DNA of 60,035 nt from Parcubacteria group bacterium GW2011_GWA2_42_14 (GCA_000998135.1 LCCV01000009.1:1-60035); one strand, 5' to 3'; numbered from the stretch's first letter, positions 2,483-10,011 are shown. Notes: generated by a model not told the origin, from the letters alone. Numbers and translations are program-made.

Positions 2483-2683
2483 TCTCGCAGGAGCGAGAAA
2501 AAATACCAAATTTAGTATAGAGCAGGTAATAAATATAAGGGCGTATGGTGGATGCCTAGGGATATCGAGGCGATGAAGGACGTTGCGTGCCTGCGATAAG
2601 CTACGGGGAGGTGGCAAGCAACCTTTGATCCGTAGATTTCCGAATGGGGAAACCCCGCCGTGCAAAACACGGTGACCGAGCAC

Positions 2684-3033
2684 TCATTTTTGGACTATAA
2701 AAAACCAGCATATATTAGCTGGTTTACTTTCGAACCGAATTTCTATTGTTATGCAATTTGTATAATTTTGCACAAATTAAGAGTATAACAATGTATAGTA
2801 TAGGAATTGGGTATAGTATTAGATTAACTATGGTATAAATTTTTCTGCCAAATGGTACATGAAAAAAATCACAGATTGATGATTCTGTAGAAATTCCTAC
2901 CAAAATACAAAGTAACAAACCTAGTATATATAACACAAACAAAGTGATTAGCATGAAAGTCTCCTGTTTTTTGTGCAAAGTTCTTATTAGAGAGTAGCAA
3001 ATATATCAATAAATGTCAAGAGTCCAAAAATGA
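2684..3033 (+). other. 23S intervening sequence IVS-1 (helix-tip insertion, domain I)
   Basis: Flanked by perfect 19-bp inverted arms gagcactcatttttggact (2678-2696) and agtccaaaaatgagtgctc (3021-3039). It lies between the conserved ccgaatggggaaacc and gaaacatctcagta blocks. Confidence 0.85.
2724..2954 (-). CDS. small membrane protein (76 aa, two hydrophobic segments), antisense to 23S
   Basis: AGGAG (2961-2965) sits 6 nt upstream of the ATG at 2954. TTGACA (3014-3019), 17 nt, TACTCT (2991-2996) form a promoter. The terminator hairpin accagc/gctggt plus T-run (2698-2723) sits right after the stop. The track ORF start at 2978 lies upstream of the SD. Confidence 0.6.
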   Translation of the reverse strand: MLITLFVLYILGLLLCILVGISTESSICDFFHVPFGRKIYTIVNLILYPIPILYIVILLICAKLYKLHNNRNSVRK

Positions 3034-3087
3034 GTGCTCGGAGCGTACCCGCTGAAGTGAAACATCTCAGTAAGCGGAGGAAAATAA

Positions 3088-3203
3088 AAAAATGCTTCGC
3101 ATTTTTTTCGCAGAATAAGCAGACAGTACGCTGAATTACGCAGAATTTTTCTGCGTATTTCTGCGTTTCTTCTGCGAATTTCTGCGAAGGGAATGCGCAG
3201 CGC
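3088..3203 (+). other. 23S IVS-2: ORF-less periodic-word hairpin (CGCAG / CTGCG words)
   Basis: Inserted between ggaggaaaataaa and attcccttagtagcggcgagcg. The arms are cgcagaa... and ttctgcg repeated every 10-11 nt around acgcagaatttttctgcgt. Confidence 0.75.
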
Positions 3204-3714
3204 ATTCCCTTAGTAGCGGCGAGCGAAAAGGGATCAGCCTAGATTGAGCATTTTTCAGATTATATCAAAAAATTTGCTTGAAGTTATAAGACATGATTAT
3301 GGTTTAATCCGAGAGGGAAGCGTTATATTAGAAGAACGGTCCTGGAAAGGCCGGCCAAAGCGGGTAATAGCCCCGTATTCGAAAATTTAAACGCACTCTT
3401 TATCATGTTCTTGAGTACTGCCCCGTATGAAGTCTGGGCAGGAAGTAGGCGGAACTAGACCGCCAAGGCTAAATACTCGATGTCACCGATAGTGAACCAG
3501 TACCGTGAGGGAAAGGTGAAAAGTAGCCCGTTTAGGGCAGTGAAATAGTACCTGAAACCATACGTTTACAAGGAGACAACGCCCGAAACCCGCAAGGGTT
3601 TTTAGGGCTATGTCGTGCCTATTGAAGAATGAGCCAACGAGTTCTTGGATTCTACTCGTTTAAGTGCCCAACGGCACAAAAGCATAGCGAAAGCGAGTGT
3701 TAATAGCGCGTTTT

Positions 3715-3998
3715 AGTTCTTAGTTTTTAGGTGTCAGATTTTAGATTATTAAAAAAACCAGAAAGTGTCTGGCTTAGTTAGGCATATCGCCTTTGATTAT
3801 GATCACATACAAGGCGTTACCGAAAGTTAAGATTGTTGCAGATAGGAAAAGAACAAAAAATCCGTTGATGAGATATTCGATCGGGATGCAGATCATTCGT
3901 GGATTCTCCAATGAAAACGAACTATGCTGATATATTAACAAATATAATTTAAAAGTCAAGTAGTCTAGAATCTGGCACCTATCAACTATGAACTATAG
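3715..3998 (+). other. 23S IVS-3 (long-stem insertion, domain II)
   Basis: Lies between gcgaaagcgagtgttaatagcgcg and aaagacccgaaacc. The imperfect arms are agttcttagtttttaggtgtcagattttagatt and agtctagaatctggcacctatcaactatgaact. Confidence 0.75.
3774..3896 (-). CDS. 40-aa hydrophobic peptide, antisense to 23S
   Basis: MICIPIEYLINGFFVLFLSATILTFGNALYVIIIKGDMPN. GGAGAA (3904-3909) is 7 nt from the ATG. TTGACT (3954-3959), 16 nt, TAATAT (3932-3937) form a promoter. The terminator is ccaga/tctgg plus T7 (3751-3773). The track start at 3959 would lie upstream of the predicted TSS. Confidence 0.55.
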   Translation of the reverse strand: MICIPIEYLINGFFVLFLSATILTFGNALYVIIIKGDMPN

Positions 3999-4406
3999 GT
4001 AGAATTCAAAAGACCCGAAACCTCGTGAGCTTACCATGAGCAGGTTGAACCCCTGAGAAATCAGGGGGGAGGACCGAACCGGTTGGTCGTGCAACGCCTT
4101 CGGATGACTTGTGGTAAGGAGTGAAAAGCTAATCGAACGAGGAAATAGCTGGTTCTCTCCGAAATAGTTTTTGGACTAGCCTCGGATCACGCTCCGCGGT
4201 ACATGAGGGGAAGAGCCCAGACCATAAACTAAGGTCCCCAAATCTATGTTAAGTGGCAAAGGTGGTGGAAATTCTCAAACAGCAAGGAGGTTGGCTTAGA
4301 AGCAGCCATCCTTTAAAGAGTGCGTAACAGCTCACTTGTCAAGAGTTTCTGCGCCTAAAATTTAACGGGGCTAAACATAGTACCGAAGTTATGGGTGTCG
4401 TGCCTC

Positions 4407-8529: not shown

Positions 8530-8589
8530 AGGTCCCAAGCGTTCGGCTGTTCGCCGATTAAAAAGTTACGCGAGCTGGGTTCAAACCGT

Positions 8590-9290
8590 CAATAAAAAGA
8601 ACCCAAATATTGACATCGAAATCTTTTAACAAGCTTATGATAGGAGTTTGTTGAAAAAACACGGCGGCTTATACGAGTAATCGTGTTCGAAAAAACCGAC
8701 TCATATCGGTGGATTCCTATTCGTCCCTTTATGTGGGATGCGCAGACAGTCGCGGACATAACGCAGACAGTCGCGGAAATTGAAATCCCAACCTGGATTT
8801 GATAGGATAATACCGAGGGAAGTTAGGTCGAATTTATTTAAATCTTAATATTTCTAAAAAATCATGGAACAAAAATATGAAGGGCAATCAGAGAAAGCAC
8901 CACAAATAATGTTAGATGTTGCGAATTTGATTTCACGATTAAGCGGAGAGATTGAAAAAGGAAACCTCACTCAAACTGTAAAAGAAAGTTTGAAACGTAT
9001 GTTAGAAGCCGGAATTAAAGATTTATCTGAATAATACTTAACCCCGTAGAGACTTGTTCGGCAATATCATGTCGGACAGACCAAGCGCACAAAATTTTAT
9101 GTGCTCGGTAACACGTCGGTCTCCATCCGCATGCATGCGGAAGGATGATGGTATAGTCCAATCCCTCTGGTAACAGAGGATATGCATAGCATCGCGGACA
9201 GTCGCAGACTGGACGCAGAACAGCGCAGAATTTTCTGCGTAATTCTGCGTAAAGTCAGCGCGATTCTGCGGTTTTGCAATGCAAAACAAG
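8590..9290 (+). mobile_element. group I intron C at E. coli-equivalent site 2593
   Basis: Exon joins as caaaccgt|cgtgagacag (E. coli GAACGU|CGUGAGACAG). The 5' exon ends in U and the intron ends in G. It is a close paralog of intron B (catatcggtgg, gataataccgagggaagttaggtcgaat, aaccccgtagagact, gatggtatagtcc). Confidence 0.8.
8864..9034 (+). CDS. 56-aa ORF in a loop of intron C (sense; below ORF-track cutoff)
   Basis: MEQKYEGQSEKAPQIMLDVANLISRLSGEIEKGNLTQTVKESLKRMLEAGIKDLSE. It sits in the same loop position as the intron B ORF and has no clear SD. Confidence 0.3.
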   Translation: MEQKYEGQSEKAPQIMLDVANLISRLSGEIEKGNLTQTVKESLKRMLEAGIKDLSE

Positions 9291-9498
9291 CGTGAGACAG
9301 GTTGGTCTCCTATCTACTGCAGGCGCAAGATACTTGAGGGAAGTCGTCCTTTGTACGAGAGGATCAGGATGAACGAACCTCTGGTCTATCGGCTGTCACG
9401 CCCGTGGCACTGCCGAGTAGCTATGTTCGGAAGGGATAACCGCTGAAAGCATCTAAGCGGGAAGCCCCTCCCAAGATTAGGTATCTCGCCCTCCCAAC

Positions 9499-9791
9499 TT
9501 TTTGGATTTTAAATTGGATTTTAAAGTTTCAATTATGTGGTATGTATATATTATCCAAAGCAAGAAAGATGATGATTTCTATGTTGGTTTAACCAATGAT
9601 TTACGTCGAAGGTTAAAACAACACAATGAAAGCAAGGTTCCTGCCACAAAATTTCGTACCCCGTTTGAGCTTGCATATTACGAAGCTCATCACAATAAAT
9701 ATGATGCCGCCCGGAGAGAACAATTTTTGAAAAGCGGCTGGGGTAAAAATTGGATAAAAAGAACACTGTTAAAGTATCTAGAATCCAAAAA
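9499..9791 (+). other. 23S IVS-8 (helix-tip insertion, domain VI) carrying a GIY-YIG ORF
   Basis: Arms ccctcccaactttttggatt (9489-9508) and aatccaaaaagttgggaggg (9782-9801) lie downstream of gctgaaagcatctaagcgggaag. No group I core motifs were seen. Confidence 0.75.
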
Positions 9792-9804
9792 GTTGGGAGG
9801 GTAA
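9535..9804 (+). CDS. GIY-YIG nuclease family protein
   Basis: WYVYIIQSKKDDDFYVGLTNDLRRRLKQHN matches the GIY...YIG / RR..H motif set. The last 7 codons and the stop are encoded by the 3' stem arm. Confidence 0.8.
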   Translation: MWYVYIIQSKKDDDFYVGLTNDLRRRLKQHNESKVPATKFRTPFELAYYEAHHNKYDAARREQFLKSGWGKNWIKRTLLKYLESKKLGG

Positions 9805-10011
9805 ATAGATCCGTGAGAGATTATCACGTTAATAGGCTTCAGGTGTAAGTGGAGCAATCCATTCAGCCGAGAAGTACTAATAGATCATAAATTACCTGCT
9901 CTATACTAAGTTTTGGTATTAACTAATTTGCATTAATATTATTCGGGCTTGTCGAGAATTTTACTTTAATTTAATGTAACTTCTCGATTACACTCGAAGA
10001 ATAAATTATTT

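Follow-up and report, generated by a model that had tools for sequence, protein, structure and literature searches.

The stretch of DNA analysed here (hereafter the window) comprises 60,035 nucleotides (nt) from Parcubacteria group bacterium GW2011_GWA2_42_14 (GCA_000998135.1, LCCV01000009.1:1-60035). Its positions 2525-9896 (plus strand) hold one bacterial 23S rRNA gene, which measures 7,372 nt in the window and 7,589 nt in every other assembly of this locus. A sequence-only reading had proposed a single 23S gene at essentially these coordinates, interrupted by twelve insertions, and both parts of this proposal were borne out. The Rfam model of the bacterial large subunit (LSU) rRNA (LSU_rRNA_bacteria, RF02541) matched 2525-7324 over model positions 1-2925 with 1502.8 bits, above the gathering threshold of 50; as this alignment was forced to be global, it cannot be relied on in its 3' part. 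When 7000-10600 was searched separately, model positions 2652-2912 were placed at 9324-9888 (205 bits) with an insertion of 306 nt. BLASTN against rrlH of Escherichia coli (L001; L numbers denote the sequences compared with the window) returned 15 colinear blocks reaching from window position 2536 to 9881, which corresponds to E. coli positions (Ec) 12-2884. Global alignment with E. coli by MAFFT misplaced the large gaps of the 7.4-kb gene, and BLAST anchors combined with excision of the inserts before alignment were used instead. When the twelve segments, together 4,595 nt, were taken out, the remaining 2,777 nt aligned end to end with the E. coli 23S rRNA at 67% identity, which identifies the segments as true insertions relative to E. 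coli.

Three groups can be distinguished among the insertions: four group I introns (A to D), three exon palindromes of a family that we term R, and five exon modules of a second family, termed S, with one further S module nested in intron A. They are not independent of one another, and the at least four architectural classes of separate insertions proposed before were revised to these three groups. Gene identity, insert boundaries, family membership, presence or absence in relatives and dispersal were read directly from the compared sequences.

Other copies of the locus were found by exact-protein look-up of the GNAT gene downstream. At least four independent public assemblies, among them ENA ERZ978281, GenBank GCA_001820775.1 (MHQY01000036), JGI 3300025308 and ERZ4903185, show this structure. 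Three copies (L002 from ENA, L003 from MHQY01000036, and L005) are 99.9-100% identical to the window across the covered part of 1800-11000 and carry the same insertions, which speaks against chimeric joins at the insertion borders. Two short segments are missing from the window and present in all other assemblies:

Between 4190 and 4191 (no strand assigned): 111 nt missing, comprising the distal part of helix (H) 38 and the 5' strand of H39.
Between 6519 and 6520 (no strand assigned): 106 nt missing, comprising the L1 stalk (H76-78) and the start of H79.

Both segments are also present in syntenic relatives, both deletions cut through helices with no repeats at their flanks, and the remaining sequence is 100% identical among the assemblies. 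The two gaps are thus probably the defect of one contig, which, taken without H38 and the L1 stalk, could be misread as a case of ribosome reduction in the candidate phyla radiation (CPR). With both segments restored, the true exon sum amounts to about 2.99 kb; the earlier figure of about 2.78 kb holds for the window as given. As the L1 stalk is intact in L002, the insert at 6524-6739 was placed on H79, and its interpretation as a replacement of the L1 stalk was dropped once the window-specific deletion had been recognised. In the JGI copy (L004, 3300025308), the sequence downstream of 4191 is 100% identical to the window. Upstream of this point (L004 1520-2610), identity is only 85-95%, the modules S1 and S2 are absent and H12 carries a different hairpin; this contig stems from a recombinant strain or else joins two strains as an assembly chimera.

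The lack of H38/H39 and the L1 stalk, with deletions cutting across helices, might also indicate an artefact of assembly or a pseudogene copy in decay. We regard this as extremely improbable, since the missing segments exist in every other, otherwise identical assembly and a single rRNA copy is the norm in CPR genomes (PMC9297842). In addition, the exons are 88-97% identical to those of syntenic relatives in most blocks (78-79% in the two most divergent), the universally conserved core blocks of the 23S rRNA are intact, and the flanking processing stem is present:

2508-2530, plus strand: 5' arm of the inverted repeat I10, the processing stem; 23 nt, pairing with 9891-9913 at 96% complementarity.
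9891-9913, plus strand: 3' arm of the processing stem (I10); the stem encloses the whole 23S unit.

Group I features had been attributed to four of the insertions, and all four have a J8/7-P7-P9 core and match the Rfam family Intron_gpI with 22-35.5 bits:

5602-6352, plus strand: intron A, after U1931; Intron_gpI 35.5 bits at 6040-6264; terminal G.
7151-7748, plus strand: intron B, after U2500; Intron_gpI 28.5 bits; last base A, not G.
7782-8529, plus strand: intron C, after A2533 (U in E. coli); Intron_gpI 22 bits; terminal G.
8590-9290, plus strand: intron D, after U2593; Intron_gpI 34.5 bits; terminal G.

Their boundaries were set by exon conservation and by empty sites in the syntenic relatives L136/L137 (GCA_001820675.1) and L139. 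The limits first proposed for A and D stand, while B ends at 7748 rather than 7749 and C starts at 7782 rather than 7781. L136 has precise empty sites, with intact exons, for A, C and D, and L139 has them for B and C. The empty site of intron A in L136 reads TTCTAAGGT^AGCGCAATT (the caret marks the junction), that of intron B in L139 reads GGCACCT^CGATGTCGG, and that of intron C reads CTGGAGA^AGGTCCC in L136, L139 and L050; intron D has a homologue in L038. The introns are patchily distributed among relatives, which shows that gain and loss are ongoing.

All four introns interrupt universally conserved sequence around the peptidyl-transferase centre (PTC). In intron A, P1 is formed by CUAAGGU and GCCUUAG (5612-5618). 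Intron B pairs GGCACCU with GGGUGCU in P1, including the U-G wobble, and has a 6-bp P10 (CGAUGU/AUAUCG), with its guide at 7156-7168; the guide CACGGCGG of intron D (8660-8667) makes P10 as well as P1. 5' exons ending in U, which form the wobble with the guide, are found for A, B and D and not for C. All four introns have the J8/7-P7 motif GAUAUAGUCC (GGAAUAGUCU in C) with a P9 hairpin after it, as well as a GAUAUAGUC-type J8/7-P7 core with a G-C guanosine-binding pair, and the P7 5' strand GUAGAGACU is common to A, B and D. Introns B and D contain an identical 28-mer, and three introns share core blocks of 16-28 nt together with the same 3'-terminal module. Only intron C encodes a recognisable protein: its open reading frame (ORF) at 7837-8382 specifies a single-domain LAGLIDADG protein (Pfam LAGLIDADG_1, 33.2 bits versus a cutoff of 23.1). 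Introns A, B and D are without an ORF; a frame at 7344-7547 in intron B had no Pfam match and was treated as spurious. A tblastn search of the window with the LAGLIDADG protein found no decayed copies in other inserts.

The terminal A of intron B follows from the choice of register. We chose 7151-7748 because no other register restores the universal GGCACCU^CGAUGUCGG of the intron-less L139 and of other CPR genes, and both P1 and the 6-bp P10 fit it exactly. The homologue of intron B in L136 (L136 5433) also ends in ACATA^CG. A shift by two bases, with G7750 as terminal G, was rejected: the conserved C2501/G2502 would become UG, UA or CA in close relatives. We then considered a metagenome scan for GATATAGTCC followed by CGATGTCGGCT 70-100 nt later, which returned 66 loci. 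Among the 47 distinct sequences directly upstream of CGATGTCGGCT, 38 end in G, typically as CGACAG^CG. Ends of the type AUA^CG occur in L183, L203 and L212 and, with the window intron and its L136 homologue, make up five distinct members. These five share the B-type guide ACAUAUCGGGG(U/C)GC; one intron with a B-type guide (L167) ends in G. The P7 strands of the A-ending introns are canonical, and P7 is followed by GUCC-AU(G/A), compared to GUCC-GA in most G-ending introns. In the Tetrahymena intron, a change of the terminal G to A reportedly blocks exon ligation unless the binding pair is changed too. A conserved non-G terminal base beside an apparently intact G-binding site is an unexpected feature of this L2500 subfamily.

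The short inserts proved to be copies of one element, which we term R. It is a hairpin with about four hexamers per arm (CGCRGA on one arm, TCYGCG on the other) at a spacing of 10-11 nt, usually accompanied by a small flanking hairpin; the exon palindromes measure about 110-130 nt. The following members were identified (z, fold score against dinucleotide shuffles):

2405-2499, plus strand: R palindrome in the 5' leader; CGCRGA and TCYGCG arms plus a small hairpin; z = -3.9.
3094-3201, plus strand: R palindrome in the H12 loop (Ec 223-232); z = -10.6.
4397-4526, plus strand: R palindrome at the H45 tip (Ec 1164-1185), the classical site of intervening sequences (IVSs); inverted repeat I6; z = -11.7.
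6936-7058, plus strand: R palindrome at the H88 tip (Ec 2400-2414); z = -7.3.
6294-6350, plus strand: single R arm (minus-arm) and hairpin, nested at the end of intron A; from repeat finding.
7690-7746, plus strand: single R arm (minus-arm) and hairpin, at the 3' end of intron B; from repeat finding.
8741-8781, plus strand: single R arm (plus-arm) inside intron D; from repeat finding.
9184-9288, plus strand: full R palindrome at the end of intron D; from repeat finding.

As RNA, the element folds into 6-bp G+C clamps between 4x4 or 5x5 internal loops, and its spacers are neither conserved nor complementary. The z values of the R folds in the window range from -3.9 to -11.7, and the H45 palindrome (fold of 4385-4532) reaches -92.9 kcal/mol. 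A three-hexamer pattern matched 11 times in the window versus 0.00 expected, always inside 2445-9260. A looser count added one array at 48019-48056, inside coding sequence. Counted as arrays, there are 8 in the 7.5 kb of the rRNA unit versus 1 in the other 52 kb. This outlying array is a single four-hexamer arm that lies in frame in a Mur-ligase-like ORF (coding sequence 47758-49158) and encodes FSAFFRVIFRVILR. Within the rRNA unit, the R arm at 6295-6332 in intron A and the unpaired arm at 8741-8778 in intron D, 2.4 kb apart, are 89% complementary, spacers included, compared to 72-80% for typical arm-to-arm matches; this pairing could be a relic of exchange between the two introns or reflect long-range pairing.

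To place the family in a wider context, species-representative genomes (one per species) were scanned with a four-unit arm pattern, which yielded at least 119 loci. Among the R loci listed, 69 lie in named CPR lineages of many classes and about 20 in or beside 16S or 23S genes. The remaining ones are mostly intergenic, often just past terminator hairpins, and comprise complete palindromes as well as isolated arms. Other CPR 23S genes have R elements at H25, H63, Ec 270-290 and Ec 651-668 and in L2593 introns. The family thus has many dispersed copies within and across genomes, most of them outside rRNA genes, as repetitive extragenic palindromes (REPs) and miniature inverted-repeat transposable elements (MITEs) do; a literature search for a CPR palindromic repeat brought up nothing relevant. 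The same scan pattern picked up many copies of a different palindromic repeat in the non-CPR Saprospiraceae MAG-362 (L020, L081, L087, L095, L122), in which TTCTGCG-type phased units surround a conserved core, CGTAGCGTACAC.

The close relatives L136-L139 have no R arrays. On the same helices they carry hairpins built from other phased short repeats (CTAATT, TCTAAA, GTAGATT, TTCGCA), and the H12 site holds unrelated hairpins of about 60 nt in L004 and L136. In L136, helix-tip inserts with tandem-motif arms were seen at 740-925, 2525-2730, 3165-3465, 4620-4712 and 5330-5440. Phased-repeat hairpins seem to be a general building principle in this related Sungbacteria 23S gene.

The regularity of the R arrays raises the question of whether they are functional rather than selfish, as phased binding sites for a CPR protein acting on the RNA in rRNA processing or assembly, or on the DNA in transcription. 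Such a role would account for hexamers that are conserved between spacers that are not, for a phasing of one helical turn and for the concentration of arrays in the rRNA unit. It would also fit the single arms adjoining terminator hairpins in many CPR genomes and the one arm-plus-hairpin module type that ends three introns. We nevertheless think it rather improbable: close relatives do without R arrays and have unrelated hairpins at the same sites, the positions differ between lineages, and a candidate binding protein was not identified.

The second family, S, comprises AT-rich modules of 216-418 nt, five in exons and one nested in intron A:

2676-3041, plus strand: S1, 366 nt, in place of the H10 tip (Ec ~150-176); perfect 21-bp stem (I13); z = -8.8.
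3714-3998, plus strand: S2, 285 nt, an extra helix at Ec 652/653 (H27-H31 junction); long interrupted stem; z = -6.4.
5063-5401, plus strand: S3, 339 nt, in place of H63 (Ec 1707-1751); inverted repeat I14, 24 nt, 88% complementary; z = -6.8.
5689-6106, plus strand: S4, nested in intron A; shared S base architecture.
6524-6739, plus strand: S5, 216 nt, at the H79 tip (Ec 2200-2223); inverted repeat I24; z = -10.5.
9486-9804, plus strand: S6, a GIY-YIG cassette; inverted repeat I8; Pfam GIY-YIG 66.8 bits versus a cutoff of 22.6.

The modules are bounded by basal inverted repeats of 18-26 nt with 88-100% complementarity (S2 has the longer interrupted stem instead), their z values run from -5.1 to -10.5, and they share the base architecture 5' TTTTTGGAYT-AT(A/T)AAAAA ... 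TTGTCAAG-ARTCCAAAAA 3'. Taken together, the eight non-intron exon modules, R and S, have ends that pair with each other and z values of -6.4 to -11.7, so that their folds are no product of chance. They had been described as eight helix-tip extensions closed by stems; all eight are stem-closed, and two are not on helix tips, since the insert at 3714-3998 forms an extra helix at the Ec 652/653 junction and the one at 9486-9804 lies in a linker, where relatives are without any H98. Extended stem-loops of the IVS type in place of variable helix tips are found at H45, H10, H12, H63, H79 and H88. S1 is absent from L004, where a 12-nt hairpin stands at its site, and so is S2. In L136, S2 is kept at 78% identity, and its base stem has changed from AGGUG/CACCU to ACCUG/CAGGU; these compensatory changes indicate that the stem is under selection.

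S6 links this family to a protein gene. Its ORF (9535-9804, 89 aa) lies between the inverted repeats CCCTCCCAACTTTTTGGA and TCCAAAAAGTTGGGAGGG (18-26 bp), and the 3' repeat, TCCAAAAAGTTGGGAGGG-TAA, itself encodes the C-terminus SKKLGG and the stop codon of the gene. We found 88 GIY-YIG homologues, half of which (44/88) end in SKKLGG despite variable preceding residues, and over-extended gene calls among them translate the upstream repeat as PPNF... or PSQLF.... In the three loci examined (L132 6801-7070, L133 10001-10270, L135 10001-10261), which represent different gene neighbourhoods, homologues with 69-75% identity all stand alone among unrelated protein genes, and no rRNA was detected near them in up to 10 kb of flank on each side. 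These free-standing copies keep the upstream (C)TTGCCCTCCCAACTTTTTGG, the inverted repeat of the gene's 3' end. In L136 and L139, which have neither the cassette nor H98, the site reads GGTATC^ATAGATCC (as RNA, GGUAUC^AUAGAUCC); the apparent H98 stem of the window therefore belongs to the cassette. These findings suggest that the hairpin-bracketed GIY-YIG gene may constitute a minimal mobile cassette. S1-S5 share the inner repeat (TTTTTGGAYT/ARTCCAAAAA) and the 3' end with it (TGTCAAGAGTCCAAAAAT in S1, TATCTAGAATCCAAAAAG in the cassette) and are its probable ORF-less relatives. Four other frames in the gene were treated as spurious: those at 5129-5311, 5791-6021 and 3774-3959 (all minus strand) had no Pfam match, and that at 2724-2978 (minus strand) had only a sub-cutoff match to DUF6512 (17.7 versus 26 bits). 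A structural pattern scan for S modules elsewhere (GTCAAG plus inverted arm), which covered part of the compared loci, gave nothing convincing, with one weak candidate (L061).

The surroundings of the gene point to its host. Neither a 16S gene nor a tRNA lies ahead of the 23S gene in window 1-2500, which holds a methylpurine glycosylase gene and small ORFs; with protein genes upstream, the 23S and 5S genes form a pair that is not linked to the 16S gene. Downstream follows the 5S gene:

10658-10777, plus strand: 5S rRNA; Rfam 62.2 bits; own flanking stem 10643-10666/10768-10791 (inverted repeat I12).

A 53-nt segment upstream of it (10517-10569) is 72% identical to 10647-10699, that is, to the 5' flank and start of the 5S gene, and may be the remnant of a 5S duplication. 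A 71-aa ORF between the 23S and 5S genes is not conserved in the relatives, and the GNAT-AlaDH-RodA neighbourhood downstream of the 23S-5S pair is kept in them. All RodA homologues at 63-65% identity are named Candidatus Sungbacteria, and the nearest named GIY-YIG homologue comes from Sungiibacteriota. Judged by these proteins, the host is a Sungbacteria bacterium (Patescibacteria/CPR; Parcubacteria-type) of aquifer groundwater.

Taken together, it is highly probable that this single Sungbacteria 23S gene serves as a sink for group I introns, R palindromes and S modules, acquired by selfish or permissive insertion. The manner of splicing, excision by RNase III and the mode of mobility we infer from sequence features. 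As the introns interrupt sequence that must be contiguous in the ribosome, their removal with ligation of the exons is required. From the guides and the conserved core, we would expect the introns to splice themselves, with the exons aligned by P1 and P10, and homing by the LAGLIDADG endonuclease of intron C would account for its spread at the DNA level into intron-less alleles. The R and S modules are found where the rRNA is exposed to solvent and variable in length; among these positions are H45, the classical IVS site, and several sites of eukaryotic expansion segments. Most of them would be cut out by RNase III at their long basal duplexes without religation, to give a fragmented functional 23S rRNA, and some may instead stay as expansion segments. 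Excision is the likeliest fate given these long basal duplexes, as in the classical IVSs at H45 and H25.

If retention were the rule, the hairpin modules would form part of the mature 50S subunit as bacterial counterparts of the eukaryotic expansion segments on H45, H63, H79 and H98. Their surface-exposed sites would allow for this, the compensatory changes in the S2 stem of a relative would be expected, and the different phased-repeat hairpins at the same sites in L136 resemble slippage-driven evolution of expansion segments. Retention would, on the other hand, load about 1.9 kb of extra RNA onto a CPR ribosome whose rRNA core is reportedly smaller than usual (PMC9297842). The perfect basal stems of 21-26 bp look like IVS or processing stems, a protein-coding cassette within a mature rRNA would be odd, and the presence of modules varies between close strains. 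We therefore see retention as possible, though unlikely, and favor removal of most modules.

Several observations weigh against this overall interpretation. All four introns score below the gathering score of 50 of the Rfam model RF00028 (E from 1.5e-6 to 8e-3); at the cmscan limit of E <= 1e-4 used by Tsurumaki et al. (2024) for the I-ShaI insertion, A, B and D would pass and C would not. Canonical self-splicing is uncertain for intron C, which follows A2533 rather than U and whose P1 pairs this A with U where a U-G wobble is expected. It is likewise uncertain for intron B, which ends in A though its G-binding P7 looks canonical. The R hairpins are broken every 6 bp by internal loops and are not ideal duplexes for RNase III. 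Finally, tblastn of the window found no remnant of the GIY-YIG ORF in S1-S5, and BLAST against the at least 119 loci of the genome scan found no S-type module outside the species cluster.

Insertions in CPR rRNA genes have been surveyed extensively. Insertions of at least 100 nt, with totals of up to 5.7 kb, were reported for 77% of CPR 23S genes (Tsurumaki et al. 2022, PMC9297842). Among 348 CPR 23S genes, 82% are interrupted, by 968 insertions with 14 recurrent sites, and 45% of the 23S insertions are group I introns by Rfam (Tsurumaki et al. 2024, PMC11270868). In that survey, the maximum was 16 insertions in any one 16S or 23S gene and 5,750 bp of insertions in a 23S gene; GIY-YIG ORFs were found only in non-intron insertions, and short IVS-like inserts were described at classical RNase III sites (PMC11270868). 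The present gene resembles these cases in its clade, its many inserts of at least 100 nt, its cluster of group I introns in domain V and its single-domain LAGLIDADG_1 ORF, and the other CPR loci that we examined show the same multi-insertion pattern. Twelve insertions with 4.6 kb are high yet within the published maxima, so that the word extreme, used for this gene in the sequence-only reading, does not apply. The gene differs in two respects. Repeat families are not mentioned in PMC9297842 or PMC11270868, while two are present here, one of them dispersed outside rRNA, and the LAGLIDADG_1 ORF at 2533 lies outside the listed hot spots (1917, 1931, 1952, 2593, 2604, 2657).

Similar comparisons can be drawn with three other systems. 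Classical 23S IVSs (Salmonella, Campylobacter, Leptospira, Coxiella; helices 25 and 45) are excised by RNase III without religation. Like the modules described here, they extend helix tips by stem-loops of about 100-430 nt, use H45 and are patchy between strains, and some carry an ORF, such as S23p in the Coxiella IVS (PMC4990558). In contrast, eight modules are present here, seven of them at positions other than H45; they consist of phased hexamers or of relatives of a GIY-YIG cassette, and their excision is predicted. LSU group I introns at L1931, L2500 and L2593 (organelles, Thermotoga, Coxiella and others) are matched by A, B and D in following a U near the PTC, in P1/P10 guides and the J8/7-P7 core, and in the LAGLIDADG homing endonuclease carried by one intron of the window; the terminal A of the B subfamily, the position of C after A and the nested R and S modules set the present introns apart. 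Finally, REPs and bacterial interspersed mosaic elements (BIMEs), MITE-like repeats and the Volvox-type palindromes that invade introns and rRNA regions of green-algal organelles (PMC2670323) are likewise short, dispersed and hairpin-forming and accumulate in non-coding, permissive sequence. R arms differ from them in being arrays of conserved hexamers with non-conserved, non-complementary spacers, and no transposase or target-site duplication was identified, none having been searched for.

Many insertions in one CPR 23S gene have already been published, and in this respect our gene adds an example, not a concept. The two families of repeated, probably mobile hairpin elements behind the non-intron inserts are undescribed in the published surveys. 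More tentatively, and with less than even odds, the non-intron inserts of CPR rRNA genes might in general be defined hairpin families sitting on helix tips and in intron loops, with R being CPR-wide and S derived from a GIY-YIG cassette, while the L2500 subfamily would splice with a terminal A in an essential single-copy gene. Independently of this reading, the half of CPR rRNA insertions listed as uncharacterised can be assigned to repeat families with members outside rRNA as well, which provides a handle on how they spread and on why rRNA helix tips collect inserts. The GIY-YIG cassette with its bracketing hairpin offers a concrete candidate mobile unit. If the L2500 introns with a terminal A and the L2533 intron positioned after an A really splice, they would be natural exceptions to two of the best conserved rules in group I chemistry.

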